From: Kiritimatiellia bacterium
Lineage (GTDB): Bacteria; Verrucomicrobiota; Kiritimatiellia; RFP12; UBA1067
Reading direction: 5' to 3'
Length of the DNA: 61,535 nucleotides
NCBI GenBank assembly: GCA_046482825.1
Contig: JAWOEI010000109.1
Span: forward strand, 1-61,535
Part shown: positions 4,069-56,302 of the stretch, piece by piece
Layout of the letters: each line of letters begins with the position of its first letter
Position numbering within the stretch: the first letter of the stretch is position 1
Notes under the pieces: model-generated
Told to the model about the DNA's origin: nothing
Seen by the model: only the letters and a program-made list of their open reading frames with translations
Databases searched by the model: none
Program-made: the position numbers and the translations under genes

Positions 4069-4236
4069 TTATTCGTACTGATTTCTTATACTGCCTGGCA
4101 GGGGCATTGTGCCTTCCCAGGATTCCCGCCCTGACCACGGCATATCGGTGTCGTGCGGGCTGTTCTGAATACATCCGGAAAGCATAGCTGCTGCGAGCAG
4201 TAAAAGCAGAACGGCAAGTTTAGAAAAATACGACAT
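4069..4236 (-). CDS. Candidate 55-aa micro-lipoprotein (absent from the ORF track, which lists nothing shorter than 60 aa)
   Basis: My own translation is MSYFSKLAVLLLLLAAAMLSGCIQNSPHDTDMPWSGRESWEGTMPLPGSIRNQYE*. It has a hydrophobic h-region plus lipobox L-S-G-C. Its ATG overlaps the last 17 nt of the upstream coiled-coil gene. A GC hairpin (ggcccga...tcgggcc) follows. Confidence 0.4.
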   Translation of the reverse strand: MSYFSKLAVLLLLLAAAMLSGCIQNSPHDTDMPWSGRESWEGTMPLPGSIRNQYE

Positions 4237-5362
4237 CACCTTTTTCCACCGGTGTCTGTTGCCAGTCGCTCAGGATATCGGCGACAATCAGGTTTTTACC
4301 GCGTACTATCTGACGTAGCTTGATGCGTGTGACAAATTCACCAGCGGCACTCTGGAGGCCGGGACGGCGCACATTCATTTCCAGCTGGGGCAGTCTGGTC
4401 TGGCGGTCAGCTCCGATAAGTTCATCAATGGTATCGTCGGTGAGTTCCAGAATTGCGAACTTCAATTTATCGTTAGCTTCGATAATTTTGCCTTTGTCAC
4501 CGGCACTGGGCAATCCGGCAGATGCTGAGGAAGAACCACTGTCGCCTGTATTAGGCTGGTTTTTCATGCCAGCGTAACGTTTCTTCAGATCTTCATAGGC
4601 ATCGCGAAGTGTTGTAAGATCCTCTTCAATGGCGAGTTTGTCTTCATTGAGAATTTTAACTTCGTTGCGCATATCGGCCAGTTCCGCATTGAGCTCTCTT
4701 TTCTCCCGCAGGAGTTTTGTCATGCGGGTTTTCGCCTCATCCTTTTCCTGCTGAAGAGCGAGCATCTGCTCGTCTTTTTCTTTAAGCTCTTTTTTGCAGG
4801 TGCGTCCATTAGATTTGAGGGTGTTGACCTCTTCAACGGCAAGAGTCATTTTTTCGCGCATGGCGGTCAGTTCACGGCGGGTCTTGTTCAGTTTTGCCTG
4901 CTGGGTTTTTGCGCGGTCGATGACGGTCTCGAGAGCAGCAGTCATTGTACCGGGGCCTTGCATAGCGGGTTTGCCGGTTAGATCATCCATAATGTATTCA
5001 CCGTCGGCGCCGACAGCATACAGACTGCGCAGCTGTTTGCGCATCTTGTTGTTGTCAAGATCCAGATAGGGCAGGTTCTGCTGTTCGAGAGAGATGGGAT
5101 AGCCTTCAAGCATTGGTTGAGTTTCCGGATTGATCAGCTCGCGTGCTGTAACCTCGGAAACGTCTTTTTTCACGGTCGGCGGTGCTGATTCTTCAGCATC
5201 TTCGCTTTCTATTGTTTTTGCCACTTTGACAACGGCATTCTCAAGAACACTGTTGCGCTTTGTGAGCAGTTCCCGCTTCTTGAAAAGCTTATTTGCAAAA
5301 ATCAGCGAGACAACACTCAATATTAGGATTACAATAACCAGTATTCTTAGCACCTTGCCCAT
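4220..5362 (-). CDS. Membrane-anchored coiled-coil protein, function unknown
   Basis: 380 aa. N-terminal TM 'ILVIVILILSVVSLIF'. A long K/E/L-rich heptad-like middle region is followed by a ~90-aa C-terminal globular domain. I recognise no family motif. Confidence 0.6.
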   Translation of the reverse strand: MGKVLRILVIVILILSVVSLIFANKLFKKRELLTKRNSVLENAVVKVAKTIESEDAEESAPPTVKKDVSEVTARELINPETQPMLEGYPISLEQQNLPYLDLDNNKMRKQLRSLYAVGADGEYIMDDLTGKPAMQGPGTMTAALETVIDRAKTQQAKLNKTRRELTAMREKMTLAVEEVNTLKSNGRTCKKELKEKDEQMLALQQEKDEAKTRMTKLLREKRELNAELADMRNEVKILNEDKLAIEEDLTTLRDAYEDLKKRYAGMKNQPNTGDSGSSSASAGLPSAGDKGKIIEANDKLKFAILELTDDTIDELIGADRQTRLPQLEMNVRRPGLQSAAGEFVTRIKLRQIVRGKNLIVADILSDWQQTPVEKGDVVFF

Positions 5363-5584: not shown

Positions 5585-8500
5585 ATGAAAGATATCAGAT
5601 ACCAGAAATTGCTGTCTCTATGTACAGTAGTGCTTATTTCTATCTTCCTTGTAAGTCAGGGGATGGCTCAGGCCGAGAGTATGGATCCCGAACTTAAAAC
5701 CGAGCTTACATATATAAAGAAGCTTCAGCAGATGCGCATGCCGGATATCGCAGAGGCTGTTATAGAGGAGACAAGAAAAAAATTTCCCGAAGCGTCCGCC
5801 CAGTTAAAGGTGCAGGAAATACAGGGCCTGCTCTGGCAGGGCAAGTGGGATGAGGTTCAGAAGATTATCGATGGTATCAAAGACAAAAACAGTGCTGAGT
5901 ACTGGGCGCTTGTTCTTTCGAAGGCCGATGCACTGTATGCCTTTCAGAAATATGAGGAGGCGGATAAGCTTTATAAACGGTTTTTCACGAAGGTGGCCAA
6001 ACCCACTCCTGAACTGGCTTCTTTCTATCGCGACTCCGCCTACAAATATGCCCAGATGCTGCTTTATCTCGGCAAGGAGTCGGAAGCCCTCGATGCATAC
6101 AGGCGGCTGGTGAACAATCCCAAGATTAAACTGGAAGAGGGGCAGGCACGCAATGTTTATGCCGAAATGGCTGAACTGATGCTGAAATTAGTTCCTGAAA
6201 CAAAGGACAAGAAGGAAAAAACGGCTATGCTCAAAGAAGCTGAGGGCATTGTCGATAAACTTCTGTGGAAACAGGATGTCTGGTTCGGCAAGGCGATAGT
6301 GATGAAAGCTCATATAGCTGTGTTTCGTAATGATATCGCCGGGGCGCAGGAGCTGGTTGAAAACTACCTGCCGCAGTTGAAGATCATTCATGATTCTCTC
6401 CTTAAAGAGGACCCTGACGGTTCCCGGGGTTGGTTGCGCATGAGTCCTATGCCTCAGTGCCGTTACCTTCTGGCCAAGCTTTTGCTTGATGAGGCCAAAG
6501 CCGAGATGAAGAAAGATAATCCCGATGAAGAGCTTATTAAATCGTTGTTTCTCGGTGAGCGAGATCCCGAAACCAAGAAGCGCAAAGGAAACGGAGCGCT
6601 GAATCATTTTCTCAACGTGTTTCTGCGTTTTCCCGAAAGTAAATGGGCTGCTGCTGCCGGGGCAGGATCAGAAGAGGTCCGCAACATCATTGAAGAGCGT
6701 TACGGTGTTTCTGTTGGTGTTACGGTGACTCCCGAGAGAATGGCTAAAGTGCGCGAGATGCAGTTTAAGAATGCGAATGTGCTCTTCAGTCGGAACCAGT
6801 ACAAGAAAGCTATCGACAGTTACCTGCAGGTGCTCAACCAGTTCCCGGAATCGAGGGAGTCTGTAAAGTCTCTTTACAATCTGGTGGTGTGTTACCTGGA
6901 TACAGCCGCGAAAAACCCTGAAGATCAGCGGATGGCCGATATGATCACCGCGCATCTTTCAGAGAGATTCTGCAAAAAAGAGGATCTGATGAAACTGGCT
7001 GGCGACAAGGTGCGGCAGATCGGTGATCTTTACGGTGAGATGAAGCGTGCCGATAAAAGAAGTGAAGTCTATGCGATGTTCTTCCGCGATTATCCTGATC
7101 ATTATGCGGCCAGCCAGCTTATCATGAGTTTTGCGGATCGCGCGTACAAAAACGAAAACTACCCCGGCGCCATGAATTATTACCAACGTATCGTCAATGA
7201 ATATCCGGGTTCGCCTTATTACATCGATGCTCTGAACCGCATCACACGGATTCACAAGGCAAAGAATAATGTGACAAACGAGATGTCGTCTCTCGAATTT
7301 CTGATCGGGGAGCTGGAAAAAACCGATAGACCCGGGCACAATCTTCCCGTTGCAGTGTTCCGTTTGGCTGAAACCCGGCGTGAATATGGCAGTTCGTTGA
7401 TGAAAAAAGCGGCTGCATCCACCAATGATACTGTTGAAGCTGTGCAGAAGACAGGCATGATGAATCTCATCAGGGCGGCTAAAGGTTTCGACAGGGTTTT
7501 TTCCATGCTGAAAGGCGACGGCGCCGCAGCATATCAGCGTAATGCCGATGAGACTCAGCGTAACGCTGAAATTTGTGAAATGGCTGCATTCACAAAGGGT
7601 ATTGCTCTGGCTCAACTGCAGTATCCCAAAAATAAGATAGAAACCTTCCGCAAACTTTCAATCAACGCTTTTGAAGATTATCTCAAGGCCTATCCGGATG
7701 GCAAATATGCGCCGCGTTCGCAACTGCAGATCGGCACCCTGTACACCATAATGACAGGTGCGGCCGAGGATGAAGCGGCCAAGGCGGAATATACCCGAAA
7801 AGCTCAGGAAGCCTTTGAAAAGCTGAGCAAAAAATATCTGGGTTCCGAGGAGGCCAGAAACTCCGTGCCTATGCTGGCGGATGCCCTGATGGATATGGGC
7901 CTGCGCGGTGAGGCTGTTGCGAAATATCGTGAGATGTTCACCGTTGACGGCAGCTATAATGCCAGTCAGTACATGAAAGCGGCTGATGCGTTGTTGGCCT
8001 CAAAGGAATATCCCCTGGCTCTGCAGGGCTACAACAAGGTTCTGGATGATGCCAAGGAGCTTTCTGTGAAAGCCGCGGCTCTGATAGGCAAGGCCAGGGC
8101 CTCTCTCGGGCAGAAGAAGTATGCCGTCGCACGTAAGATACTTGAGGATTTTGTGAATGACGAAAAGCTGTCCAGACTGACTCTGGTTGTTGAAGCCAAT
8201 ATGCTTCTGGTTGAAGCAGCCAGCGAAATGGGCAAAACAGAGGCGGATGATGACCTGCGCAAGGATCTTTTCAACCAGGCAATTGATGCGCTCAAGGTGG
8301 TTAAAGGACATCGCAAGGAGAAGGCTGAGATTGCGGAGATTGATCTGGCAACAGGCGATGTTCTCGTCCGGAAGATGAAGGCGGAGGAGAAACTCGGACT
8401 CAAAGAGCAGATGGTTGAGTCGCGGGGCAAGGCAATTGTAGCTTATATGTCTCTTATCGATCGCATTGATCCCGGAGATGCCGAGCTGACACCTTACCTG

Positions 8501-8656
8501 GAAAAAGCATATCATGAGTTTGTGCCTCTGTTGCTCGAACACGAAGCTTACGAACAGGCAGCCGAGGACTGTCAGACCTATCTGAAGCTTTTCCCTGAGG
8601 GAAAATACAAGACAGATATACAGAACTGGCTTAACCAGGCGCAAATTGAACTTTAG
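5585..8656 (+). CDS. Large tetratricopeptide-repeat (TPR) protein with N-terminal signal/anchor
   Basis: 1023 aa. Hydrophobic N-terminus 'LLSLCTVVLISIFLV'. Repeated A/Y/L-rich helical pairs run throughout ('YKYAQMLLYLGKESEALDAYRRL', 'GAMNYYQRIVNEYPGSPY', and others). Confidence 0.8.
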   Translation: MKDIRYQKLLSLCTVVLISIFLVSQGMAQAESMDPELKTELTYIKKLQQMRMPDIAEAVIEETRKKFPEASAQLKVQEIQGLLWQGKWDEVQKIIDGIKDKNSAEYWALVLSKADALYAFQKYEEADKLYKRFFTKVAKPTPELASFYRDSAYKYAQMLLYLGKESEALDAYRRLVNNPKIKLEEGQARNVYAEMAELMLKLVPETKDKKEKTAMLKEAEGIVDKLLWKQDVWFGKAIVMKAHIAVFRNDIAGAQELVENYLPQLKIIHDSLLKEDPDGSRGWLRMSPMPQCRYLLAKLLLDEAKAEMKKDNPDEELIKSLFLGERDPETKKRKGNGALNHFLNVFLRFPESKWAAAAGAGSEEVRNIIEERYGVSVGVTVTPERMAKVREMQFKNANVLFSRNQYKKAIDSYLQVLNQFPESRESVKSLYNLVVCYLDTAAKNPEDQRMADMITAHLSERFCKKEDLMKLAGDKVRQIGDLYGEMKRADKRSEVYAMFFRDYPDHYAASQLIMSFADRAYKNENYPGAMNYYQRIVNEYPGSPYYIDALNRITRIHKAKNNVTNEMSSLEFLIGELEKTDRPGHNLPVAVFRLAETRREYGSSLMKKAAASTNDTVEAVQKTGMMNLIRAAKGFDRVFSMLKGDGAAAYQRNADETQRNAEICEMAAFTKGIALAQLQYPKNKIETFRKLSINAFEDYLKAYPDGKYAPRSQLQIGTLYTIMTGAAEDEAAKAEYTRKAQEAFEKLSKKYLGSEEARNSVPMLADALMDMGLRGEAVAKYREMFTVDGSYNASQYMKAADALLASKEYPLALQGYNKVLDDAKELSVKAAALIGKARASLGQKKYAVARKILEDFVNDEKLSRLTLVVEANMLLVEAASEMGKTEADDDLRKDLFNQAIDALKVVKGHRKEKAEIAEIDLATGDVLVRKMKAEEKLGLKEQMVESRGKAIVAYMSLIDRIDPGDAELTPYLEKAYHEFVPLLLEHEAYEQAAEDCQTYLKLFPEGKYKTDIQNWLNQAQIEL

Positions 8657-8824
8657 ATGCATTCGGCTCAGCGGGAAGCATGCGTAATCCAGACGGATTG
8701 CGGAGACTGGGCCGTTGCATGGTGAGTTTTTCCCGCCTTCGGGGGGAGCGTATGATTAAGGCCGGGTATTGCTTGCCTGGCGTGCCGACGGAAAAAGTGT
8801 TAAGAAGCAAATAAAGGAACAAGT

Positions 8825-9616
8825 ATGAGAAATGAGATAAAAAGAGTTTTAGCGGTAATGGTTCTGCTGAGTGCGGGATCAGCCCTGGCTCAGGTGAAAG
8901 GCAGGATTATTACCACCGAAGGCCGTCCTATGCCGGGGGAGATCAAGTGGAGTAACCGCGACAAGGCCTATAAAATCAAGGCTAACAATATCGAGGTGTC
9001 AGTTCCTCCGGAAAAGGTTGCGAAACTTGAGATCCCCAAACCGGATGCATTGACTGACGCGGAGGCCCTGATTGAGAAAGGCCGTGGAGCCCAGGCAGTG
9101 AATAAGCTTGAAAGCGTGATCAGCACATACAACAAACTTAACTGGGATGAGGTTGCCACGGGGCTGCTTGCCAAGGCTTATATCGCCGACAACGATGCCG
9201 CGAACGCCATCAGGGCCTGTGAGAAAATCATTGCCGATGATCCTGAAAAAGCTTACATTGGTGAGATGGCTCCTACCTATTGGAAGGCGCTTCTGATAGG
9301 AGACCGTTTGTCTAAACTCTCGGATTATGTTACTAAGGCGGTGAAAAGCGGTGACCGCACCGCTTCGGCATTTGCTCTGATTCTGCGTGGCGACATTATC
9401 CGTAAAGAGGGTGATTCCAAAGAAAGCGCGGCCAAGGCCCTGCGTGATGGATATCTGCGTGTAGTTGTCTTGTATAAATCGGTCAAGGAGGCTCAGCCTG
9501 AAGCGTTATACAAGGCCGCTCAGTGTTTTGATGAACTGGGGCAGTCTTCGCGTGCTGACCAGATGCGTACAACCTTGAAAGGTGAATATGCTTCATCTGA
9601 ATGGGCGGTAAAGTGA
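8825..9616 (+). CDS. Secreted TPR-like helical-repeat protein
   Basis: 263 aa. Signal peptide 'VLAVMVLLSAGSALAQ'. TPR-like helices ('LLAKAYIADNDAANAIRACEKII'). 'aaaggaa' lies upstream of the ATG. Confidence 0.6.
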   Translation: MRNEIKRVLAVMVLLSAGSALAQVKGRIITTEGRPMPGEIKWSNRDKAYKIKANNIEVSVPPEKVAKLEIPKPDALTDAEALIEKGRGAQAVNKLESVISTYNKLNWDEVATGLLAKAYIADNDAANAIRACEKIIADDPEKAYIGEMAPTYWKALLIGDRLSKLSDYVTKAVKSGDRTASAFALILRGDIIRKEGDSKESAAKALRDGYLRVVVLYKSVKEAQPEALYKAAQCFDELGQSSRADQMRTTLKGEYASSEWAVK

Positions 9617-9713
9617 GTCGCGTGTCGGGTAAGTATCAGCGGATGATTCTTTAACTGAATTTTGTTAGTAAACAGCTAACTTTTAACACAAGAGTAATAA
9701 AAAGAGGTCAATA

Positions 9714-10487
9714 ATGAAAAAACTGATTCTGTCAGCAGCAGTATTCGCAGGATTAATGCTTGGAAGTGCGTCGCTTATGGCGCAGGATGCACCGGAAGCC
9801 AAGGGAGAAGGTGCGCTCGTCGCTGATTCCGAGCAGGCTCAGAAACCGCAACAGGCGGGGTTCTTCGCGGTTATCGTCAATTCCGGCTGGCTGGGCATGC
9901 TTCTATGGGGAGCACTCTTCGGCTGCGGAGCTGCGGCTGTATATTTTATCGTGGACTGCTCCGTGCTTATCCGTCCGCAGAAGGTTATGCCCGAGACGCT
10001 GATCAACAAAGTCAAAGAGGGAATGTCCGAAGGCGATGTAATGAAAGCACTGCAGGCATGTGAATCAGAACCCGGACCTCTGGCTAATATTCTGACTGCC
10101 GGTTTTTCTCATGTTGAAGAGGGATTTGATATCATTCAGGAGTCGGTCGGGGCTGCGGCGGATCTGGAAACGGAACGTCTGATGCAGCGTCTGACCTGGA
10201 TTTCCGTCTGCTCCAACCTTTCGCCTATGCTTGGTCTGCTGGGTACCGTGCAGGGCATGATCATGTCTTTCCAGACGCTGGCTACAGGTGCTCCTGATAT
10301 CGGAGCTCTTGCTATGAATATTTCTCAGGCTCTGTGGACAACCGCTACGGGTCTGGCTGTGGCTATTCCCGCAATCGCATTTTATTACAGCATCCGCAAC
10401 AATGCCAATCGGCTCATTCTGCGTATGCAGGCCATGACCATGGAACTGATCAAGGATCTGCGCAATGTCGAAGTTGTCAGCGAGTGA
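9714..10487 (+). CDS. exbB: MotA/TolQ/ExbB proton-channel protein
   Basis: 257 aa. 'LSPMLGLLGTVQGMI' and 'ALWTTATGLAVAIPAIAFYY' are canonical ExbB/TolQ TM2-TM3 motifs. Confidence 0.9.
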   Translation: MKKLILSAAVFAGLMLGSASLMAQDAPEAKGEGALVADSEQAQKPQQAGFFAVIVNSGWLGMLLWGALFGCGAAAVYFIVDCSVLIRPQKVMPETLINKVKEGMSEGDVMKALQACESEPGPLANILTAGFSHVEEGFDIIQESVGAAADLETERLMQRLTWISVCSNLSPMLGLLGTVQGMIMSFQTLATGAPDIGALAMNISQALWTTATGLAVAIPAIAFYYSIRNNANRLILRMQAMTMELIKDLRNVEVVSE

Positions 10488-10644
10488 TTGCGGTTGAGTT
10501 GACGGAGCCCCTTAACCCTGGTTTCAGCGAACAATCTGCGGAATGCCGGTGGAATACTGGCTGGCAGCGCGGTTGTGACTTTTATACCGTGTTTTCGCGA
10601 AGAAAAAAACTTTAACCGCCTCCGGGTGGACGAGGAACCGGACT

Positions 10645-11079
10645 ATGCACAGAAAAAAACTCAGTTCGACTGATCAGTGCGAAATGGATATGACGCCCAT
10701 GATCGATGTTGTGTTTCAGCTTATCATTTTCTTCGTGGTAACCCTGAAGATGACGCAGGATCAGAATGAAAACATCTTTCTCGAAGACGGAAAACACGGC
10801 GTTACCCTGACGCAGGACAACATGCCCCCCAGTACTCTTGAGATTGAGCTCGGCCGTCGGGGACGTCTGTCCATTCATAATGCGGTACTTACGAAATCGA
10901 TGCTTCACGTGATACTGAAAAACCGTGTTGCACGTCACGGCAACGAATTTCCAGTCCTTATCCGTGCTGATAAACGTGTTCCGCACAATAAAGTCAGGGA
11001 AATCATGGATATCTGTACTGCTGCGGGAATATGGAAACTCTCGTTTGTGGCTGTTCAGGAGCACAAAACGGGTAAATGA
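10645..11079 (+). CDS. exbD: Biopolymer transport protein ExbD/TolR (copy 1)
   Basis: 144 aa. 'DMTPMIDVVFQLIIFFVVT' with the conserved TM Asp. Confidence 0.9.
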   Translation: MHRKKLSSTDQCEMDMTPMIDVVFQLIIFFVVTLKMTQDQNENIFLEDGKHGVTLTQDNMPPSTLEIELGRRGRLSIHNAVLTKSMLHVILKNRVARHGNEFPVLIRADKRVPHNKVREIMDICTAAGIWKLSFVAVQEHKTGK

Positions 11080-11097
11080 TAATATCAGGAGGCCTTT

Positions 11098-11502
11098 ATG
11101 GCTTACAGAAGAAAAAAAAACAGAGGTGAATCTCCCCAGCTGGATATGACGCCTATGATCGATGTGGTTTTCCAGTTGTTGATCTTTTTTGTTGTCACTA
11201 TCAAGCAGGAGGATATCCTCTCTAAGCTGTCCGCAGCACGCCCCGCTCCAGATAAGAATGCGAAGCCGGATAAGCAACCCGATCTGCTGAATATCATTGT
11301 TGCGTCGCAGGGCTTCATCTTTAACGGACGCTCGGTGAGTAAAGAGGCACTGGACAGACGTATCGAGCAGTATTCCAAGCTCAGCAAAACTGCGATGATA
11401 GTGATCAAGTGTACTGCTGATTCTCCACACGGGCTCCTGGTGCAGTCACTGGATATCTGCAATAAGCATGGTATGACGAACCTGTCCATTTTCAGTATGT
11501 AA
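11098..11502 (+). CDS. exbD: Biopolymer transport protein ExbD/TolR (copy 2)
   Basis: 134 aa. 'DMTPMIDVVFQLLIFFVVT'. AGGAGG lies 6 nt upstream. It starts 18 nt after copy 1. Confidence 0.9.
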   Translation: MAYRRKKNRGESPQLDMTPMIDVVFQLLIFFVVTIKQEDILSKLSAARPAPDKNAKPDKQPDLLNIIVASQGFIFNGRSVSKEALDRRIEQYSKLSKTAMIVIKCTADSPHGLLVQSLDICNKHGMTNLSIFSM

Positions 11503-11520
11503 GGGAGAGGGTAGATTAAT

Positions 11521-13257
11521 ATGGATTTAAATGAAGTAAATACCCATCTCGCAGAAATCGCCGAGATGTATGGGAGCGAATCTTATTTTCATCGCCTTAA
11601 AAAACTTTTTACAGGCCTGAAACAGCCCAGGAGTTCGCATGCATACAAGGAGTCGATGATAGAGATGCAGCGATTGTCGGCGCCGCTGGCCGCAATTTTG
11701 ATGCCGGCTCTTGCTGTGTTTCTGCTGATTGTGCTTTCGAGTGCCACTACCAGTAGGGAGAAGGTTATCGAAACCCAGATTATTGAAGCGGAGGAAATGC
11801 AGGATCTTCAGGAGATAGAAGAGATTGTTGAACCACCCGAGGTGATGGAGGAACTGGATGTCGATATAGAAATCGACACGCCGGATGTCAGCGTTGAAGC
11901 AGTACAGCAGGAGACTACGGTCAGTTCACAGCCCGCTGAGTTTGATTCGGTTATGAGTGTTAAAAGTCCGGTTATTCTAAAGAATATGTACGGGACAACA
12001 CGCAGTACCGGTACTATCGGCGCGTCACTGAAACGTTTCGGCGGTGATAAACAGACCGAAGCCGCAGTTATGAAGGCCCTTCGCTGGCTGAAGATGAAAC
12101 AGAACAAAGATGGAAGCTGGGATCGCAATAAGGTGGCCATGACAGGATTGGCCATCCTGACCTTCCTTGCTCACGGTGAGAAACCGGGTGACTCCGAAGA
12201 GTTCGGCGATACAATACGGAAGGCTCTGAAGTATCTCATCCAAAGGCATAAAGCTAATAAAGGCCGCCTTCCCGGTAACTATGATCATCCCATTGCGACT
12301 TACGCAATCTGTGAAGCTTACGGCATGACTCTCAATCCCAATGTCAAGACAGTAGCCGAGGAATCGCTCGCGCAGATTATTAAAGGGCAGCATCCGACCG
12401 GAGGCTGGACTTACAATCTATACAGCGGTTTGGATAAGAAAACCGGCAAATACCGTGATGACACATCTTATATGGGCTGGTGTGCACAGGCTTTGAAGGC
12501 AGGTAAGCTTGGCGGCTTGCATGTGGAAGGCATGGAGAAATCCATCAAACTGGCTATCAAGGGATTCCTGGGAAATGCCCATCCCAAGGGCGGTTTCGGA
12601 TATACCAGTCCTTCGAGAGGCGGATTAACCGCAACCGGTACGCTCTGTCTGCAGCTTTTAGGTGCCTCTTATAAAAGGGAAGTCAAGAAATCGCTTGATC
12701 TGATGGATGAATGGACACCGACATTCTCGCAGTATGACAGGGTTCATGAAATCATGAAACAGTTGAAGCCGGAAGACCTGATTATGCGCAATAAAGCGGG
12801 AAAGCCTATTCTGGATGATAAAGGCAAACCAAGAAAACAGAGTAGGATAAGAGTTGCCAAAAATAAGCTTGTTTCAGAACTGGAGCCGGAGAAAAGAAAA
12901 TTTTACACAGGATCGCCTCAGTATTATTACTACTATGCGACGCAGTGTAAATTCCATGAAGGCGGCAAAGACTGGGTGAACTGGAACAAGGACATGAAGC
13001 CTGCGTATATCAAAGCTCAGAAGGTTAAGAAAGATGCTTATTCTTTCGATGACAAAAAACATGATGTCGGATGGTGGGAGAATGCGGATACACATTCGGA
13101 TCGCCCGGTTATGGACACTTGCCTCGCCGCACTCCAGCTGATGGTTTACTATCGTTATCTGCCTACAACCAGTGCCAGGGCTGTCGAGGTTGAAGAGGAA
13201 ATTACCGCTACCTCAACAGATACCGATGACATCAAGGTGGATGTCGGTAATCTGTAG
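11521..13257 (+). CDS. TonB-topology membrane protein with prenyltransferase/squalene-cyclase-like alpha/alpha-toroid periplasmic domain
   Basis: 578 aa. A cytoplasmic N-terminus is followed by a single TM 'LAAILMPALAVFLLIVL' and an acidic linker 'EAEEMQDLQEIEEIVEPPEVMEELDVDIEIDTP'. Toroid repeats follow: 'ALRWLKMKQNKDGSW' and 'GQHPTGGWTY'. It starts 18 nt after exbD2. I see no TonB C-terminal motif. Confidence 0.75.
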   Translation: MDLNEVNTHLAEIAEMYGSESYFHRLKKLFTGLKQPRSSHAYKESMIEMQRLSAPLAAILMPALAVFLLIVLSSATTSREKVIETQIIEAEEMQDLQEIEEIVEPPEVMEELDVDIEIDTPDVSVEAVQQETTVSSQPAEFDSVMSVKSPVILKNMYGTTRSTGTIGASLKRFGGDKQTEAAVMKALRWLKMKQNKDGSWDRNKVAMTGLAILTFLAHGEKPGDSEEFGDTIRKALKYLIQRHKANKGRLPGNYDHPIATYAICEAYGMTLNPNVKTVAEESLAQIIKGQHPTGGWTYNLYSGLDKKTGKYRDDTSYMGWCAQALKAGKLGGLHVEGMEKSIKLAIKGFLGNAHPKGGFGYTSPSRGGLTATGTLCLQLLGASYKREVKKSLDLMDEWTPTFSQYDRVHEIMKQLKPEDLIMRNKAGKPILDDKGKPRKQSRIRVAKNKLVSELEPEKRKFYTGSPQYYYYYATQCKFHEGGKDWVNWNKDMKPAYIKAQKVKKDAYSFDDKKHDVGWWENADTHSDRPVMDTCLAALQLMVYYRYLPTTSARAVEVEEEITATSTDTDDIKVDVGNL

Positions 13258-13264
13258 CGTTAAA

Positions 13265-13297
13265 CACGGGGGGCTGCCCCCGTGCTGTCGCTGTTTT
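13265..13297 (+). terminator. Hairpin terminator candidate closing the Exb cluster
   Basis: Perfect 8-bp stem cacggggg/cccccgtg with a 4-nt loop. A TTTT run follows 9 nt later, so the tail is weak. Confidence 0.4.
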
Positions 13298-13367
13298 ATC
13301 AAGTGCGGTTTTCCCGGTATTGATGTTCCGCCGGTAACGGCGGGATTCCGGTTCGGTGGTAGCAGTT

Positions 13368-14594
13368 ATGCCCTTTTCCCTTTTTCTAGCCTGTAAATAT
13401 CTCAAGCCTAAACGCAGTGTCGCATCCGTCGTGACACTGATTTCCGTTCTTGGTGTGGTGCTTGGTGTCGCCATAATTATCATAGTGCGGGCTGTAATGA
13501 CAGGTTTCGGCGATATGTGGCAGGAGAAAATCCTCGATTTCAAGCCGCATATCACGGTTCGTTCTGTGGGTGGCGGTGTGATTCACGACGAGGGAACGAT
13601 CTGCCGCAGACTGGAACAGGTTGAAGGCGTAATCGCCGCATCGCCCTCGCTTGAAACGCGTGTCCTGGTGGAACACCGTCGCCGGGTTGTCGCGCCGCTG
13701 CTTATCGGTGTTGATCCTGAACAGGCCTGCAGGGTTCTCAAGCTGGACAGAGTGGTCTCCGGTGCTTTTGATTTGCGTGGAGACTCTGTGGTTCTCGGTG
13801 TTGATCTGGCGGTTGAACTCGGGGTGACGGTAGGTGATGACCTGCTTATATACTCCCCTATGAATCTGGTTTCCGACGACGAGGTTTATTTTCCGGAACG
13901 CCTAACTGTCACCGGCGTTTTTGAATCAGGACAGCGTGATTTCGACTCAGGTTATATCATTACTTCCCTGGCTGTTGCACGCGACCTTATGGGCATGGAT
14001 AAAGGGGTGTATTCTATTCACCTGAAAACGGAACATCCGGCGAAACATGAATATTTCAGCAGGGTCCGTGAAGATGTGGACAGGCTGCTTCCCGGATATG
14101 TCGTGCGCACCTGGCAGGAGATAGACAGGCAGCTTTTCAATGCGCTGGCCGTTGAAAAAAACATGATGGTTATTCTGCTTATGTTTATCACCGTTGTGGC
14201 TATTTTCTGCGTAACCAACACTCTGATTGTGCTGACAGTGCAGAAAACCGATGAGATAGGCCTGCTCAAAGCCCTGGGTTTTTCCTCTGCTCAGGTGATG
14301 TGGGCCTTTGTAATACACGGGTGGATTCAGTGTATCGCGGGAACTCTGCTGGGTGTGGGCGCTGCTTTCCTTATTCTGCATAATCTGCAGTCCATGGTTG
14401 ACGGATTATCCATGATGGGTGTCGAGGTTTTCCCCAAGGATATTTACGGGCTTTCTTCAATACCGTGGCGTATTGTTACTTCAGAGGTGGTTGATGTAGC
14501 GCTAAGCGTTATACTGTTCTGTACAGTGGCTAGTTTTCTTCCTGCGTGGCGTGCCTCCCGAATGGATCCGGTGGAGGCTTTGCGTAAGGAGTAG
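13368..14594 (+). CDS. Lipoprotein-releasing ABC transporter permease (LolC/E, FtsX family)
   Basis: Starts 'MPFSLFLACKYLKPKRS'. It has the 4-TM FtsX layout with a large periplasmic loop. The ORF track starts at a GTG 12 nt upstream, and I prefer the ATG. Confidence 0.85.
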   Translation: MPFSLFLACKYLKPKRSVASVVTLISVLGVVLGVAIIIIVRAVMTGFGDMWQEKILDFKPHITVRSVGGGVIHDEGTICRRLEQVEGVIAASPSLETRVLVEHRRRVVAPLLIGVDPEQACRVLKLDRVVSGAFDLRGDSVVLGVDLAVELGVTVGDDLLIYSPMNLVSDDEVYFPERLTVTGVFESGQRDFDSGYIITSLAVARDLMGMDKGVYSIHLKTEHPAKHEYFSRVREDVDRLLPGYVVRTWQEIDRQLFNALAVEKNMMVILLMFITVVAIFCVTNTLIVLTVQKTDEIGLLKALGFSSAQVMWAFVIHGWIQCIAGTLLGVGAAFLILHNLQSMVDGLSMMGVEVFPKDIYGLSSIPWRIVTSEVVDVALSVILFCTVASFLPAWRASRMDPVEALRKE

Positions 14595-14796
14595 GTAAAG
14601 AAATGCGCGAGTGATGAAGTGCGCAAGTTCTTTTTTACAAGCACTTTATGTGACAGCACGGGATGCGGGTTGAAATACTGGCCGTGTCCCGAAACCCGGA
14701 TCAGGTATCAGATTGCTTCCTGTAACATCAAATAACAATCAGGAAAAGCGCATGACCCAGGACAAAGTGGAATGAACAATAAAAGCAGACATTACT

Positions 14797-15471
14797 ATGC
14801 TCAAAGCAGATAAAATATACAAAAAATACATACTGCCCCATCAAACTGTGGAGGTCCTGAAAGGCGCATCTTTTTCTGTGGGCGGCAACGAGCGCGTTGC
14901 TGTTGTGGGGCGCAGCGGCGCCGGCAAAAGCACACTGCTGCATATTCTGGGGGGGCTTGACAGGCCTGACTCCGGCACACTCGAAGTGGACGGACTTTCG
15001 ATCTACTCTATGTCGCGACGTAAACGCACGGCAGTCAGAGCGGCGCGTATCGGGTTTGTTTTCCAGTCCTATCATCTGCTGCCGGAGATGGATGTGACTG
15101 AGAACGTGATGCTTCCCGCTATGACAGGAGTTCTGCATCTTTCACGAAGCGCTATGCGTAAACGCGCTCTGGATCTGCTGGAACGTGTGGGACTGGCCGA
15201 CCGTGCATCACACAGACCCATGGAACTTTCAGGCGGGGAACAGCAGCGTGTGGCGCTGGCGCGTGCCCTGATCAACAAACCGGCCCTGATCCTTGCGGAT
15301 GAACCTACAGGCAATCTTGACAGCACAACCGGATCCAGTGTGATGGATCTGCTTTTTGAACTTTCATGTACAAACAGTTCCGCTCTTGTTATGGTTACAC
15401 ACTCTATGGATAGCGCGGGACTTTGCGACCGCATTCTTGAAATCCGTGACGGCCTGCTGGTGGAAGTATAA
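14797..15471 (+). CDS. lolD: Lipoprotein-releasing ABC transporter ATP-binding protein
   Basis: 224 aa. Walker A 'GRSGAGKST', signature 'LSGGEQQRVALARAL', Walker B 'LILADEPTGNLD'. Confidence 0.85.
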   Translation: MLKADKIYKKYILPHQTVEVLKGASFSVGGNERVAVVGRSGAGKSTLLHILGGLDRPDSGTLEVDGLSIYSMSRRKRTAVRAARIGFVFQSYHLLPEMDVTENVMLPAMTGVLHLSRSAMRKRALDLLERVGLADRASHRPMELSGGEQQRVALARALINKPALILADEPTGNLDSTTGSSVMDLLFELSCTNSSALVMVTHSMDSAGLCDRILEIRDGLLVEV

Positions 15472-22622: not shown

Positions 22623-24974
22623 ATGCATAAATCATTGCGTTTGCTGTTGGTTATGTCGGTTTTTGTCTCTTCCATGGCGATGGGAGCTAAAAACACAGTT
22701 AAAGATGTCACTGTCAGGGTGATTGATAAAATCGGTACTGATGCATCGGATGTTCTGACATTCTGCAGTGTCAAGCCCGGTTCCGAGATTTCACAGGAGG
22801 CGATGTCAAAAGATGTACGCGCTCTTCTTGATACGGGACGTTTCGGCTATGCCGGAGTTGAGCTGGAAAAGGTGGATGACGGTGTACGCGTGGTGTATGT
22901 TGTTCGCCGCCGGTATCGTTTCCAGGAACCCCTGACTGTCAAAGGCGCGGATTATTTCAGCGAGCGTAAAATACGCAAACTCGCGGATATGGAAAGCGGT
23001 GATTATATCGATGAGCCGGTGATGTCTGAAAAGGTTGCCGCCATACGAGAGGCCTACATCAAAAAGTTTTTCTCTGACGTCAGAATAGGAGTGAAGATTG
23101 ATCCCATTGAAGACGGAGCAGGCGCGGCCAACGTAATTCTGACCATTGATGAGGGGCAGAGGGTTAAAATCAAGGAGTTCCGTTTTTCCGGTAATCTGTC
23201 GATTGAATCCAGCGAGCTGCGCTCCTCTTTCGGTCAGCGTCCCTGGTACGATCCCCGCGGGTGGTTTACGGATACACCGGTGTCAGCGCAGGATCTGGAG
23301 GATGCCCGCTTGGAAGCTGAAAAAGTTTACCACAACCGCGGGTATCTGGATGCCCAGGTTTCCACTCCTGTCAAGGAAATGGTGGATGAAGACGAGGCCG
23401 CTATGGTTTTTTCGGTCACAGAAGGTGACATCTACACGGTGGAATCAACCGCGGTTAAAGGTGTTAAACTATTCCCTGAAGATGCGGTTGAAGCCGAAAT
23501 TACCCTGAAACCGGATGATGTGGCCAGTCTGGAGGCAATAGAGGCCGCAGCCCGAAGTGTGCGTGATTATTATACAGCCCGCGGTTATATCGATACAAAT
23601 GTGCGCGCTGTGAAAGAGCCTGTTGAAGGCAAGCCCGGACGTCTGGTTGTCACTTTCAACGTGACGGAAGGTTCTCTGGTTTATATCAACAACATACTTA
23701 TACGCGGCAATAATAAAACGAAAGACAAAGTGATACGCCGTGAAATCATGGTTAACCCCGGTGAGGTTATGGACGGGGTTGCTGTCAAGCGCAGCGAAAA
23801 CCGCCTGACGAATCTGGGTTATTTTAAACAGGTCCGCAATTATTCTGAAAAGACAGACAAGGCAGGATCACGTAACCTTGTTTACGAGGTTGAAGAACAG
23901 CGTACGGGAAATTTCATGGTCGGTGCGGGTTTTTCAAGTATCGATAACCTGGTCGGCTTTGCCGAGGTCTCACAGAGTAACTTTGACATCCTTAATTGGC
24001 CGAATTTCACAGGCGGCGGACAGAAGGCCCGTCTGGGGGTGGAAGTTGGTTCGCGCAGGCAGACGGTTGAAGCTTCTGTCACGGAACCTTGGTTTCTGGA
24101 CAGGCCTATCGCACTTACGGTTGAAGGCTATCGCAGGATGCGCTGGTATGACGAATATGACCTGATCCGTAGCGGGGCTTCCGTCGGGCTGTCCTATCCG
24201 ATTAAATTCGGCCGTTTCGGTGTTCGCTATACTCTTGAACTGGTTGAGATGGAGGATGTGGACTCCGGCTTTGATTATGACGAGAAGGGGAACGATATTG
24301 TTCCGGCCAGCTATAATGGCGATGACGGCTATTTCGGCTATATGGAGGATGAATACGGCGATGCGCTTAACAGTGTTGTTCGTCTCTATTGGGCACATGA
24401 TACCCGTGATCATCCCTTTGTTCCGACCCGCGGATACAAAACCACGGTGTTCGGCGAGGCCACCGAGAGTGGCATAGGCGACAACGAGGTGTACTCTATG
24501 GGTGCCGCTTACCGCCGCTGGTATCCCATGCCATGGTTCAAACATGTGCTGAGTCTGCGCGGGCGCTTTCAGACGGTTGAGGCCTATAGCGGAGACGTTC
24601 CGATTTATGAAAAACTTTTTGCTGGCGGTCCCCGTTCTATCCGAGGCTTCGAGTATCGCGATGTCGGCCCCAAGGCGTTTAAAGATAATGAAAAGACGCA
24701 TGCTCCCATAGGCGGCCAGACGCTTGCTCTGGTTTCCGCGGAATATACCATTCCGGTGTTCAAAGCCTTGCGTTTCGCAACTTTTGTTGACGTGGGGTCG
24801 GTCGGAGAGGACCATTTTGATCCCGAGTTTTCCGATATCGCCGCTGCTGCCGGTATAGGTTTCCGCATCGATATCCCCGGGTTCCCCATCAGATTCGATT
24901 TTGCTGAAAGCATCTCCGAAGATGACAGTTATACAGACGATGAAATGTTTTCGTTTTCCATCGGATTTGAATAA
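22623..24974 (+). CDS. bamA: Outer membrane protein assembly factor BamA (Omp85)
   Basis: 783 aa. A signal peptide is followed by POTRA-like repeats ('EGQRVKIKEFRFSGN', 'EGSLVYINNILIRGNNKTKDKVIRREI'). The C-terminal beta-barrel ends '...FSFSIGFE'. Confidence 0.95.
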   Translation: MHKSLRLLLVMSVFVSSMAMGAKNTVKDVTVRVIDKIGTDASDVLTFCSVKPGSEISQEAMSKDVRALLDTGRFGYAGVELEKVDDGVRVVYVVRRRYRFQEPLTVKGADYFSERKIRKLADMESGDYIDEPVMSEKVAAIREAYIKKFFSDVRIGVKIDPIEDGAGAANVILTIDEGQRVKIKEFRFSGNLSIESSELRSSFGQRPWYDPRGWFTDTPVSAQDLEDARLEAEKVYHNRGYLDAQVSTPVKEMVDEDEAAMVFSVTEGDIYTVESTAVKGVKLFPEDAVEAEITLKPDDVASLEAIEAAARSVRDYYTARGYIDTNVRAVKEPVEGKPGRLVVTFNVTEGSLVYINNILIRGNNKTKDKVIRREIMVNPGEVMDGVAVKRSENRLTNLGYFKQVRNYSEKTDKAGSRNLVYEVEEQRTGNFMVGAGFSSIDNLVGFAEVSQSNFDILNWPNFTGGGQKARLGVEVGSRRQTVEASVTEPWFLDRPIALTVEGYRRMRWYDEYDLIRSGASVGLSYPIKFGRFGVRYTLELVEMEDVDSGFDYDEKGNDIVPASYNGDDGYFGYMEDEYGDALNSVVRLYWAHDTRDHPFVPTRGYKTTVFGEATESGIGDNEVYSMGAAYRRWYPMPWFKHVLSLRGRFQTVEAYSGDVPIYEKLFAGGPRSIRGFEYRDVGPKAFKDNEKTHAPIGGQTLALVSAEYTIPVFKALRFATFVDVGSVGEDHFDPEFSDIAAAAGIGFRIDIPGFPIRFDFAESISEDDSYTDDEMFSFSIGFE

Positions 24975-25087
24975 GCCGAAGCTGCTTTCAGCCGCCTGTC
25001 TGCGCCTGCCTGACAGGCAGGCAGGCAAAAGGACTGAAACAAAACAATGTGCGTAAGCGATAAGAATGAAAAAAGAAAGTTGATGAT

Positions 25088-25666
25088 ATGAAAAGAATAC
25101 TTTTAGTATTGGCGGCGGTTTTAACCGCCGGAGTTTTAACTGCTGCAGAAAAAACCGCAGTTGTTAATATGGTCGATCTTGTCCGTTATCATCCTAGCCG
25201 TGAGCGCGACCGCAAACTCATGGAGGAGACGGAGAAGGAATTCCAGGCAAAACTCGATAAACAACGCGACAGATTTGAAGAGTTGCGTGCTGATTATGAA
25301 AAGGTTGTCAAAGAGGCCCGTAATCCCGCATTAAACGATAAAGCCAGGGCTGAAGCTGAAGATAAAGCTATGAAACATCGTGAAGTCTTGGCTCAGGCGG
25401 ATAGAGATCTTCGTGATGAGATGAAAAATCTGCAGGGTGAACTCGGAGATCTTGATGCGCGCCTCCTTCGTCAGGTTACAGGCGATATACGCGAGATCCT
25501 GACCAAATTCGCGGAAGAGAAGAAGTATGATATGGTGCTGGACAGCACCACCATGGCTTACTTCAATCCCGAACTGGATGTCACAGATGATGTTCTGAAA
25601 CGCATGGGAGTTGATCCCGCAGTGCGTAAGCAGGCTGAGAAGCAGAAAGAGGCGGAGAAAGAATAA
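25088..25666 (+). CDS. skp: OmpH/Skp-family periplasmic chaperone
   Basis: 192 aa. It has a signal peptide, a K/E-rich coiled arm, and the canonical position between bamA and lpxD. Confidence 0.8.
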   Translation: MKRILLVLAAVLTAGVLTAAEKTAVVNMVDLVRYHPSRERDRKLMEETEKEFQAKLDKQRDRFEELRADYEKVVKEARNPALNDKARAEAEDKAMKHREVLAQADRDLRDEMKNLQGELGDLDARLLRQVTGDIREILTKFAEEKKYDMVLDSTTMAYFNPELDVTDDVLKRMGVDPAVRKQAEKQKEAEKE

Positions 25667-25834
25667 GCGGATGCGGGTTCAGAGAGCCCGCAAACCGATA
25701 TCTCTCGTATGCGCTCTTCCGGCGGGAAGCAGTTTTCGCATTACGTTTAAGCCGGCATACGCAAGACGTGTTTCGGAATACACCGTTTTTTTTGATATCG
25801 GGCGCTGTGTTGCTTTATTTCAGGCTTGCAGAAT

Positions 25835-25864
25835 GCGCCTCTCGGAGAGGGGCGCGTATTTTTT
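25835..25864 (+). terminator. Rho-independent terminator candidate after skp
   Basis: Stem gcgcctctc / gagaggggcgc with one bulge, followed by 'tatttttt'. Confidence 0.5.
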
Positions 25865-25892
25865 GCTGTACGCAGGTATAAAAGGATAAGTG

Positions 25893-26966
25893 ATGAACGT
25901 CAGAAATATCGCAGACCATATCGGCGGTGTGCTTGCCGGGAATGAATCCGTGGATATAAGGAACATAGCTGATCTTAACGAGGCACGCGAAGGGGATATT
26001 TCCTTTTTCAGAGAAAAAAGATACGCGGCACAGCTGGAGAAAACACAAGCCAGTGCGGTGATTGTTCCGGCAGACTGGGAAGGCGACTGTCCCGCTCCGG
26101 CTGTTATAAAGGTTGCCGATCCCAGCGACGGTTTTATGAAAGTTTCCGCGTTTTTCGCTCCGCCTCCGGTTGTCCATGAGCCTGGAATCCACCCGACCGC
26201 AGTTATCGGTGAGGATGTGTTTATCGGTGACGATGTGTATGTCGGGCCCTGGACTGTTATTGAAAAGGGAGCGGAAATAGGAGCCGGTTCTGTGATTGAG
26301 GCGCAGGTGTTTGTAGGACAGCGCGTTGTTCTGGGCCGCAACTGCCATATCTATCCGCAGGTTACAATTCGCGAGGGATGTCTGCTCGGTGATCGTGTGA
26401 TTCTGCACTCCGGCGTGAGAATAGGCAGTGACGGATACGGGTATAATCCCGTAATCAGTGCGGATGGAAATATTACAATAGAAAAAATCCCCCAGATAGG
26501 TATTGTCGAACTCGGCAACGACGTTGAAATCGGAAGTAACACCACAGTTGACCGGGCACGTGTCGGACGAACCCTTATCGGCAACAGCACTAAAATCGAT
26601 AATCTGGTGCAGATAGGCCATAATGTGCAGGTCGGTGACTACAGCGGCATCATTGCTCAGGCCGGTGTGGCAGGCAGCACCAAAATCGGTTCAGGTTGTA
26701 TAATATGGGCGCAGGCCGGGATTGCCGGTCATCTGAAGGTCGGTGACCGTGGACAGGTGGGACCTGCCAGCGGACTGACAAAAGATTTGCCCGAAGGCGA
26801 ATACTATCTGGGTCTGCCGGCTGTCTCACGACGTGAATTCGCAGCCGCTAAGCTGCTGCCCCGAACAGTTGAAAAGCTCAGGAAGAAAGTTATGGCTCTC
26901 GAAGCCCGCCTGAATGAGCTTGAACAGCCTCGGGATTCGGAAGAGGCATCGACCCCGGCGCCCTGA
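25893..26966 (+). CDS. lpxD: UDP-3-O-acylglucosamine N-acyltransferase
   Basis: ~357 aa. It has a long left-handed beta-helix of hexapeptide repeats ('IGDDVYVGPWTVIEKGAEIGAGSVIE...') and a C-terminal helix. The ATG lies 3 nt inside the track's GTG start. Confidence 0.95.
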   Translation: MNVRNIADHIGGVLAGNESVDIRNIADLNEAREGDISFFREKRYAAQLEKTQASAVIVPADWEGDCPAPAVIKVADPSDGFMKVSAFFAPPPVVHEPGIHPTAVIGEDVFIGDDVYVGPWTVIEKGAEIGAGSVIEAQVFVGQRVVLGRNCHIYPQVTIREGCLLGDRVILHSGVRIGSDGYGYNPVISADGNITIEKIPQIGIVELGNDVEIGSNTTVDRARVGRTLIGNSTKIDNLVQIGHNVQVGDYSGIIAQAGVAGSTKIGSGCIIWAQAGIAGHLKVGDRGQVGPASGLTKDLPEGEYYLGLPAVSRREFAAAKLLPRTVEKLRKKVMALEARLNELEQPRDSEEASTPAP

Positions 26967-55729: not shown

Positions 55730-55737
55730 AGCATCTC

Positions 55738-56295: not shown

Positions 56296-56302
56296 AATCT
56301 TG

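Follow-up and report, generated by a model that had tools for sequence, protein, structure and literature searches.

The window analysed here is a 61,535-nt stretch of a Kiritimatiellia bacterium (assembly GCA_046482825.1, contig JAWOEI010000109.1, forward strand), and its best homologues agree with a placement in Kiritimatiellia. Between positions 5585 and 13257 it carries six co-directional genes on the + strand, which encode two TPR proteins, an ExbB/TolQ-type proton-channel subunit, two different ExbDs and a 578-aa protein with a toroid-shaped head, referred to below as the toroid protein. An earlier note, made from the sequence alone, had described this cluster as an Exb motor without a TonB, whose coupled partner would be the 578-aa protein. 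Its observation of six genes in the order TPR-TPR-exbB-exbD-exbD-578 aa holds, and all of them are present in the open reading frame (ORF) list and the translations, where they were placed as follows:

5585-8656, + strand: large TPR protein of 1023 aa with a signal peptide and YbgF/CpoB- and BamD-like TPR modules (Pfam TPR_14/16/6, YfiO)
8825-9616, + strand: small TPR protein of 263 aa with a signal peptide (Pfam TPR_19, TPR_6)
9714-10487, + strand: ExbB/TolQ-type proton-channel subunit of 257 aa (MotA_ExbB PF01618, E = 1.5e-27)
10645-11079, + strand: ExbD1 of 144 aa (ExbD PF02472, E = 1.7e-22)
11098-11502, + strand: ExbD2 of 134 aa (ExbD PF02472, E = 2.5e-20)
11521-13257, + strand: toroid protein of 578 aa, with a conserved cytoplasmic N-terminus, one transmembrane (TM) helix, an acidic linker, an (alpha/alpha)6 toroid and an acidic C-terminal strand
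11521-11745, + strand: N-terminal module of the toroid protein (aa 1-75), made up of a TM helix and the conserved helices on its cytoplasmic side
11947-12000, + strand: linker strand of the toroid protein (aa 143-160, core KSPVILKN), a candidate ExbD docking site
12037-13188, + strand: (alpha/alpha)6 toroid in the periplasm (aa 173-556), containing QW-type repeats and an insertion that varies between lineages
13189-13254, + strand: acidic C-terminal tail of the toroid protein, ending in the alternating hydrophobic strand DDIKVDVGNL

The exbD1, exbD2 and toroid genes lie in one common reading frame, and the separation of 18 nt that had been given for these last three genes is exact for both spacers, which contain a Shine-Dalgarno-like AGGAGG or GGGAGAGGG. 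The gap between exbB and exbD1 measures 157 nt.

The motor subunits and the toroid protein

ExbB and both ExbDs score above the Pfam cutoffs (96.3 bits for ExbB, with a cutoff of 22.9 for PF01618; 80.2 and 73.3 bits for the ExbDs, with a cutoff of 25.4 for PF02472), and the aspartate of the ExbD TM helix is kept in ExbD1 and ExbD2 alike (MTPMIDVV), which places the motor core within its known families. ExbB begins with a signal-like segment and is slightly nearer to TolQ than to ExbB, both in comparison with PDB (E = 1.3e-8 for TolQ and 1.3e-6 for ExbB) and in NCBIfam (78.9 vs 47 bits), where every equivalog score stays below its cutoff. ExbD1 matches the ExbD and TolR of PDB with E values from 1e-4 to 5e-3, and ExbD2 has a Pro/Lys-rich segment after its TM helix.

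The toroid protein has a single hydrophobic segment (aa 54-72), whose TM region, QRLSAPLAAILMPALAVFLLIVL, contains no His and is preceded by a conserved cytoplasmic N-terminus of about 52 aa. The linker that follows (aa 76-172, 97 residues) includes 22 acidic and 7 basic residues and 5 Pro. This topology had been likened to that of TonB, and the single TM helix and the long linker agree with the comparison, whereas the N-terminus is not very short and the linker is acidic instead of Pro-rich. The lack of a TonB C-terminal domain was corroborated by the profile search, in which the protein gave no TonB_C (PF03544) or TolA match in Pfam at E <= 0.1, while the TonB of a related locus (L005), taken as control, reached 74 bits.

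In the AlphaFold2 (AF2) model of the toroid protein, built on 33 homologues and with a mean pLDDT of 71.4, the toroid is confident (aa ~175-555, pLDDT mostly 82-96), a long helix spans the TM segment, and disorder is predicted for the linker (aa 75-172) and for the 22 residues at the C-terminus. Foldseek comparison of the toroid model with PDB retrieved (alpha/alpha)6 barrels, with squalene-hopene cyclase first (1sqc, E = 3.6e-4); further matches were GH76 mannanases, cellobiose 2-epimerases, type II terpene cyclases, the thioester domain (TED) of alpha-2-macroglobulin and polysaccharide lyases, with target TM-scores of ~0.55-0.59. Squalene-hopene cyclase was also the best match of the family profile (alignment A1) against PDB (E = 9e-7). 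According to the model, the head is a single QW-repeat (alpha/alpha)6 toroid; it comprises one toroid of ~380 aa and not a two-domain beta-gamma architecture, and its two QW-type motifs are 'KQNKDGSW' at aa 193 and 'HPTGGWTY' at aa 291.

The description of this head as prenyltransferase/squalene-cyclase-type stands for the repeats and the fold, and not for a prenyltransferase identity. The toroid protein gave no PF00432 prenyltransferase match at E <= 0.1, some distant relatives match it weakly, and SQHop_cyclase_C (PF13243) reached 23.4 bits, just below its cutoff of 26.1. The term 'prenyltransferase-like' thus applies to the fold only, because thioester motif, DxDD motif and prenyltransferase match are all missing. 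Thioester capture, which had been mentioned as a use of this fold, was discarded, as the conserved motif C264-E265-A266-Y267 lacks the Gln of CxEQ and TED PF07678 matches at E = 0.1. Class II terpene cyclase activity was rejected as well: the stretch 'YRDDTS' resembled DxDDTA, but across 113 family representatives only R312-x-D314-x-S316 is conserved and D313 is variable. Unlike squalene-hopene cyclase and the alpha-2-macroglobulin TED, the cluster protein is bitopic with a single, periplasmic toroid, and its scores lie under the family cutoffs.

One alternative is an enzyme: anchored in the membrane, the toroid protein would work in the periplasm, e.g. on a glycan or an isoprenoid-linked substrate, and would be co-transcribed with the motor and not mechanically coupled to it. 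Most (alpha/alpha)6 toroids are enzymes, the Foldseek matches include squalene-hopene cyclase, GH76, cellobiose 2-epimerases and polysaccharide lyases, many polar or aromatic residues of the toroid are invariant (E265, R312, D314, S316, W320, Q323, H479, N489, D532), and some members show weak Pec_lyase matches. However, the DxDD of class II cyclases is replaced by R-x-D-x-S, the matches to enzyme families are at or below threshold, and the use of the toroid as outer module of anti-sigma factors and kinases, described below, is typical of binding domains. The fusions with ExbD and TPR and the strict ExbD2 adjacency would also need another explanation, and we consider an uncoupled enzyme very improbable.

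Outside the toroid, the N-terminal module presents an invariant face in alignment A1 (E48, Q50, R51, L52, A54, P55, A58, P62), of which R51, L52 and P55 are ~70% conserved among the 113 family representatives, and it may serve as the membrane docking part. The KSPVILKN strand has low pLDDT in the AF2 model. The last 25 residues show an h-x-h-x-h pattern in 92 of the 113 representatives, against 13% of background windows, and acidic residues are enriched at -9 to -7 from the C-terminus across the family; the tail is a candidate beta-strand or TPR-ligand docking peptide. The toroid itself contains a Lys-rich insertion of ~60 residues (aa ~400-462, 12718-12906) that is missing from about half of the homologues. 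We considered a basic toroid suited to anionic glycans and abandoned it, as the net charge of +20 comes largely from this insertion and 53 orthologues have a mean of +5.6 (range -7 to +17). One related genome (L001) holds both forms, with a short toroid behind exbD2 and a long one, bearing the insertion, after lolD.

Conservation of the locus and the wider toroid family

A scan of one genome per GTDB species (up to 80 loci) gave 78 loci, and ten more from contig look-ups completed a sample of 88. Owing to the search patterns and the scan size, Kiritimatiellia are over-represented in it; the taxon labels of metagenome-assembled genomes (MAGs) are unreliable, e.g. 'Akkermansia sp.' or 'Lentisphaeraceae' on close relatives. 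An ExbD2-type gene lies directly upstream of 53 of the 95 toroid genes in these loci, and in all 53 the best upstream match is ExbD2-type. The Exb-linked loci on long enough contigs present a coiled-coil gene on the opposite strand followed by large TPR, small TPR, exbB, exbD1, exbD2 and toroid genes, and this full order is kept down to ~38-41% identity, including MAGs labelled Lentisphaerae (L079) and Verrucomicrobia (L086). Additional ExbD2-toroid pairs, these without exbB, are present in L071 and L064. The synteny of exbBDD, toroid and TPR genes across relatives, which the earlier note had proposed to check, was therefore found, and the arrangement is far beyond chance because it recurs in dozens of related loci.

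Natural fusions point in the same direction. In P0215 an ExbD1-like periplasmic domain is followed by a Pro/acidic linker and a toroid (34% identity to the ExbD1 of the window, E = 1e-19, and no comparable ExbD2 match), in P0245 the ExbD-like domain is followed by a YbgF-like TPR segment and then a toroid, with another exbD gene just upstream, and P0222 and P0342 combine TPR repeats with a toroid. An only accidental adjacency of the toroid gene is excluded by the conserved synteny together with these fusions.

Within the window, Pfam scans revealed no TonB_C protein, and tblastn with the tonB operon of relatives found no counterpart of it. In two related loci, L004 and L005, whose toroid is 62% identical, a canonical operon lies directly after lolD on the opposite strand:

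L005:13808-15813, - strand: canonical exbB-exbD-tonB operon, same region in L004

This operon encodes another ExbB (PF01618, E = 1.8e-30), one ExbD that keeps the TM Asp and a TonB with TonB_C (E = 1.4e-20), a Pro-rich spacer and the SxxxH motif in its TM helix (SAALH in L005). The tonB ORF of L005 has a GTG start and is probably over-extended, the true start being likely near Met167. TonB_C and TonB-dependent receptor genes have also been reported from Pontiella genomes (PMC10880615), and for Kiritimatiella glycovorans no such polysaccharide-uptake receptors are reported (PMC5148204). The words 'without a TonB' hold, then, for the cluster but fail for the lineage, and the separate operon of the relatives indicates a dedicated second motor rather than a TonB-less organism. 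With a separate motor for the canonical TonB, and the toroid protein in the TonB slot here, the idea of a distinct machine is strengthened.

A likeness to Ton is evident in the MotA/ExbB-family channel, in the ExbDs with their TM Asp and in a bitopic N-in protein, encoded directly after exbD, whose single TM helix is followed in the periplasm by a long, flexible linker and a folded head; there are also several toroid-protein paralogues per genome, comparable to multiple TonBs. On the other hand, the cluster protein has neither TonB_C nor SxxxH, its linker is acidic instead of Pro-rich, it carries a ~380-aa toroid head and a conserved 52-aa N-terminus, no TonB-dependent receptor gene is near the cluster, and a true exbB-exbD-tonB operon exists beside it in relatives. 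An ordinary Ton system, with ExbB-ExbD-ExbD energising a normal TonB from another locus and the toroid gene as an unrelated passenger, could appeal to the TonB_C genes of relatives and of Pontiella (PMC10880615) and to exbB-exbD-exbD clusters serving a TonB, which are common, e.g. in Fibrobacter (PMC6851124). We give it a next to negligible probability: an exbB and an exbD of its own adjoin the canonical tonB in L004 and L005, and for this reason the motor of the cluster is not merely awaiting a TonB from elsewhere, while the toroid gene stays behind exbD2 over wide divergence and ExbD-like fusions occur elsewhere. In Fibrobacter succinogenes, FSU_2397-2403 encode TPR, TPR, ExbB, ExbD, ExbD and TonB, and are implicated in the use of a polymer, cellulose, at the envelope (PMC6851124). 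The region FSU_2396-2403 resembles the cluster, by gene order alone, in its large TPR, second TPR, exbB, exbD, exbD and third bitopic component, and differs in that its last gene is of the TonB family and an OmpA-family gene is present there, whereas here the toroid gene is last and there is no OmpA gene.

The toroid family extends well beyond the motor, with 8409 matches at E <= 0.001 and 544 at E <= 1e-30 among the 1.84 billion cluster representatives searched. Its named members are annotated as 'terpene cyclase/mutase family' or 'prenyltransferase/squalene oxidase repeat-containing', and these annotations are probably misleading. A second toroid class, 45-50% identical to the toroid of the window, never has exbD upstream. 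In 15 loci (e.g. L036, L037, L039, L030; L037:10001-12891) a gene for an extracytoplasmic function (ECF) sigma factor comes directly next, and in both loci checked (L036, L037) it is followed by a zf-HC2 anti-sigma gene, forming a recurrent three-gene module without nearby exbD; in L088 the ECF sigma gene is upstream of the toroid gene. Fusions were found here too, of zf-HC2 anti-sigma, toroid N-terminal module, TM and toroid (P0151) and of Ser/Thr kinase, TM and toroid (P0164), and some stand-alone toroid genes adjoin genes for glycan-degrading enzymes. Because of these sigma/anti-sigma, kinase and stand-alone contexts, the toroid appears to be a periplasmic module of general use in binding or sensing. 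One stand-alone toroid paralogue, on a metagenomic contig of 52 kb, adjoins Microviridae-like genes (L082:11902-14397, - strand; Phage_F major capsid, Chlamy_scaf, Phage_ORF5), which may represent an integrated gokushovirus-like element.

Comparison of 53 Exb-linked with 15 sigma-linked toroid proteins showed that the N-terminal module G..PR.S..YK.A.IE.QRL.AP..A..LP and the C-terminal tail D..DI.V...NL are common to both classes, and that conservation of the linker strand KSPVILKNIYG is confined to the Exb-linked one (mean column conservation of 0.78 vs 0.46). By analogy with TonB, KSPVILKN could be a class-specific contact with the periplasmic domain of ExbD. The shared module and tail, the sigma-linked paralogues and the two fusions would also suit a toroid that acts as a periplasmic sensor, reporting a ligand to the motor or gating it, with paralogues that signal to ECF sigma factors and no pulling of cargo, in the manner of TonB-FecA-FecR-FecI. 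The resemblance to FecA-FecR-FecI signalling lies in the toroid paralogues beside ECF sigma/anti-sigma genes or fused to zf-HC2, which have the N-terminal module of the motor-linked copy; it differs in that TonB-dependent receptor and FecR-type domain are absent and the toroid is the sensing module, and any coupling of the paralogues to the motor would be our extrapolation. Pure sensing seems to us distinctly unlikely, given that Pfam scans found no sigma, anti-sigma or kinase gene near the Exb-linked copy, that this copy has its class-specific linker motif, and that the ExbD-toroid fusions favour a mechanical or structural tie over signalling alone. The sensor-only, plain-enzyme and ordinary-Ton explanations are all less likely than a coupled toroid, being disfavoured by the fusions and the separate tonB operon.

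TPR proteins, envelope neighbours and the MUL1 locus

Both TPR proteins have predicted signal peptides and find their best named matches in YbgF/CpoB and BamD, and searches of PDB sequences with either of them gave no informative match. The large one reaches 82.9 bits with NCBIfam tol_pal_ybgF (TIGR02795) over 4 stretches, under the cutoff of 90.1, while its orthologue in L079 reaches 109.7 bits; it is conserved in synteny across related loci, and from these profile matches it is best described as repeated YbgF-like modules within 1023 aa, not as a YbgF orthologue. The AF2 model of the small TPR protein (pLDDT 89.7) consists of a five-stranded beta domain (aa 24-69) and about five TPR repeats, and in Foldseek it retrieved generic TPR matches only (BamD, MamA, PilW). 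The small TPR protein of the window matches the NCBIfam family NF052542 ('Mul1B family putative transporter subunit') with E = 0.009, the orthologue in L043 does so with E = 3.2e-5 over nearly its full length, and 8 of 38 small-TPR orthologues match it, the best with E = 1e-9. Judged by these profiles, the small TPR protein and Akkermansia Mul1B are distantly homologous, a relation that stops short of family membership and suggests a role in glycan uptake.

According to papers that cite Davey et al. 2023, MUL1 is a mucin utilization locus of Akkermansia muciniphila, with Mul1A (Amuc_0544), Mul1B and their neighbours. Mul1B is presumably Amuc_0543 and, if this is right, the two TPR genes stand in reverse order in MUL1. 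'Biopolymer' transporter is the usual name for ExbD/TolR-type proteins. Published papers describe mul1A as a mucin transport gene required for efficient gut colonisation (PMC12570417), list Amuc_0546, two genes from mul1A, among 'biopolymer' transporters (PMC11480725), and report that MUL1 is absent in synteny even in aquatic Akkermansiaceae (PMC13174399). The parallels comprise a small TPR family distantly homologous to Mul1B with a large TPR protein beside it, comparable to Mul1A, and the Exb-type 'biopolymer transport' gene Amuc_0546 that adjoins mul1A/B; both hosts are, moreover, bacteria of the PVC group on complex, often sulfated, glycans. The host is of a different class and the window protein stays at 15 bits with the Mul1B family, whose cutoff is 75. 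Taken by its sequence relationships, the cluster is probably a distant relative of MUL1.

The neighbours of the cluster within the window are these:

13265-13284, + strand: GC-rich hairpin 3' of the toroid gene, from the fold scan
13356-15471, + strand: lolCE and lolD, lipoprotein-release ABC transporter (lolCE in NCBIfam, E = 6.8e-83; ABC_tran match at 14797-15471)
4220-5362, - strand: divergent coiled-coil neighbour of 380 aa, with a hydrophobic segment at aa 4-22 (N-terminal TM) and a long coiled coil

The 380-aa protein has only weak coiled-coil-type matches in Pfam and NCBIfam, and its gene, divergent from that of the large TPR protein, keeps position and orientation in more than 25 related loci. 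The hairpin that had been seen as closing the cluster does exist, with an 8-bp GC stem (CACGGGGGG-CUGC-CCCCCGUG) in a region that folds at z = -2.9. Its role as operon terminator was not upheld: no T-run adjoins it, the terminator scan gave no flag, and lolCE, in conserved synteny, starts 99 nt past the stop of the toroid gene. The transcription unit may therefore extend beyond the hairpin. A second strong hairpin (13325-13346, + strand; UUCCGCCGG-UAAC-GGCGGGA) lies between the toroid gene and lolCE, just 5' of the lolCE start. About 7 kb downstream of lolD, an envelope-biogenesis block (22623-28965, + strand) contains bamA (Omp85, POTRA domains), skp/ompH, lpxD and a gene for a DegP-type protease.

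This neighbourhood raises the main and serious rival of a glycan-handling motor, namely a housekeeping role like that of Tol-Pal, with the toroid protein as analogue of TolA in outer-membrane attachment, envelope growth, division or lipid/lipoprotein traffic, and no import of nutrients. It would fit the ExbB that is slightly nearer to TolQ, the best named TPR matches (tol_pal_ybgF and BamD, with one orthologue named 'TolA-binding protein' by JGI), the lolC(-lolD) genes that come next after 30 of the 53 Exb-linked toroid genes, and the nearby bamA, skp, lpxD and degP. There is also apparently one Exb-linked cluster per genome, lying among core genes with no flanking genes for carbohydrate-active enzymes (CAZymes) or sulfatases. 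But Pfam scans detected no TolB-like (beta-propeller) or Pal/OmpA-like gene in or beside the cluster, the toroid protein has neither TolA domain III nor the long helical domain II (its linker is predicted disordered), and every Tol equivalog score is under cutoff. Compared with Tol-Pal there are, besides, two ExbD/TolR paralogues instead of one, and the TPR proteins are much larger (1023 aa) or have an extra beta domain. Finally, the Mul1B homology points to a locus for growth on mucin and not for viability. We regard the housekeeping role as serious, albeit unlikely.

Proposed working of the motor

Ton and Tol are the textbook routes by which inner-membrane energy reaches the outer envelope of Gram-negative bacteria, and the transducers of both have a small terminal domain of TonB/TolA type. 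In the literature search no paper came up that connects ExbD with proteins of prenyltransferase or squalene-cyclase repeats, or that describes an ExbBD partner with a toroid head, and the cluster appears to be a hitherto undescribed variant of Ton/Tol envelope machines with a core of known kind. The explanation that we favour, to which we give about an even chance, is a dedicated motor of the Ton/Tol class in which the toroid protein is the coupled third component and the TPR proteins are accessory, most likely for the uptake or handling of glycans at the envelope.

In such a machine, one ExbB/TolQ-type channel protein and two different ExbDs would form the proton-motive motor, the toroid protein would take the slot of TonB or TolA, and the two periplasmic TPR proteins, similar to Mul1A and Mul1B, would be accessory parts. 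The N-terminal helix/TM module would seat the toroid protein beside the ExbB-ExbD complex. The linker of TonB has an ExbD-binding segment, and on this model the periplasmic domain of ExbD could grip the KSPVILKN strand within the acidic linker of ~100 residues, so that proton flow would move ExbD and thereby pull or reposition the toroid head. The head itself would bind a periplasmic or envelope ligand, by analogy with MUL1 most likely a glycan cargo entering the periplasm, while the acidic C-terminal strand may dock with one more partner, be it a TPR groove or a component of the outer membrane. Gene content, fold, the lack of TonB_C, synteny, fusions, paralogue classes and Mul1B homology are observed; physical contact between the toroid protein and the motor, the transmission of force, the roles of the two linear motifs and the nature of the ligand are inferred. 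The toroid would accordingly be the part that receives the force and the TPR proteins would act as scaffolds, much as first proposed.

This proposal draws on intact motor genes, the TM Asp in both ExbDs, the 18-nt spacing with its ribosome-binding sites and a TonB-like topology with a conserved TM face, and equally on the conserved gene order, the fusions, the separate tonB operon of relatives, the class-specific linker motif, the TonB-family gene in the corresponding slot of the Fibrobacter cluster and the Mul1B homology. Several observations weigh against it. Neither a CAZyme nor an outer-membrane gene belongs to the cluster; its surroundings of housekeeping envelope genes (lolCD, bamA, skp, lpxD, degP) suit a Tol-like role better than uptake; the TM helix of the toroid protein lacks the SxxxH (SHLS) motif of TonB and TolA; and the Mul1B match of the window protein is weak (15.2 bits, with a cutoff of 75). 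Likewise, ~40% of the sampled members of the toroid family do not adjoin exbD, and a sensor would explain the pairing of the toroid with kinase and sigma/anti-sigma modules no less well than a force receiver would.

A bolder view would see in the PVC lineages Kiritimatiellia and Lentisphaerae a third kind of Ton/Tol-type transduction, in which a family of toroid-headed proteins uses one ExbB-ExbD1-ExbD2 motor through the shared N-terminal module. The motor-linked copy would use the proton-motive force to pull or hand over polymeric glycan into the periplasm, as the long-sought engine of 'selfish' polysaccharide or mucin uptake in bacteria without SusCD-type receptors, and the paralogues would drive ECF sigma signalling; we advance this view tentatively and hold it to be doubtful. 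A conserved motor with a large alpha/alpha toroid on its transducer would in any case widen the Ton/Tol picture, and the toroid motor would be a concrete candidate for the uptake of complex sulfated glycans and mucins by Kiritimatiellia, possibly also by Akkermansia via MUL1. Mucin uptake in Akkermansia is genetically defined and not understood in its mechanism.

Elsewhere in the window, a 1026-aa bifunctional fucose pyrophosphorylase / GHMP kinase of the L-fucokinase / GDP-fucose pyrophosphorylase type (46642-49722, + strand) fits a lifestyle on fucose-rich glycans, and two proteins carry the 3-keto-disaccharide hydrolase domain PF06439 (3150-3917 and 43607-44788, both + strand). A supposed second Exb cluster at 53573-56758 was dismissed, as its genes encode pseudopilins and not ExbD. 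The region 50207-56758 (- strand) comprises two pseudopilin genes with N-terminal methylation motifs, then ORFs of 580 and 137 aa without a Pfam match, and then a 1043-aa protein with PATR repeats, which are of autotransporter passenger type. The second Akkermansia locus, MUL2, is pilus-like, hence the interest of this cluster, possibly a type II secretion system or one resembling type IV pili.

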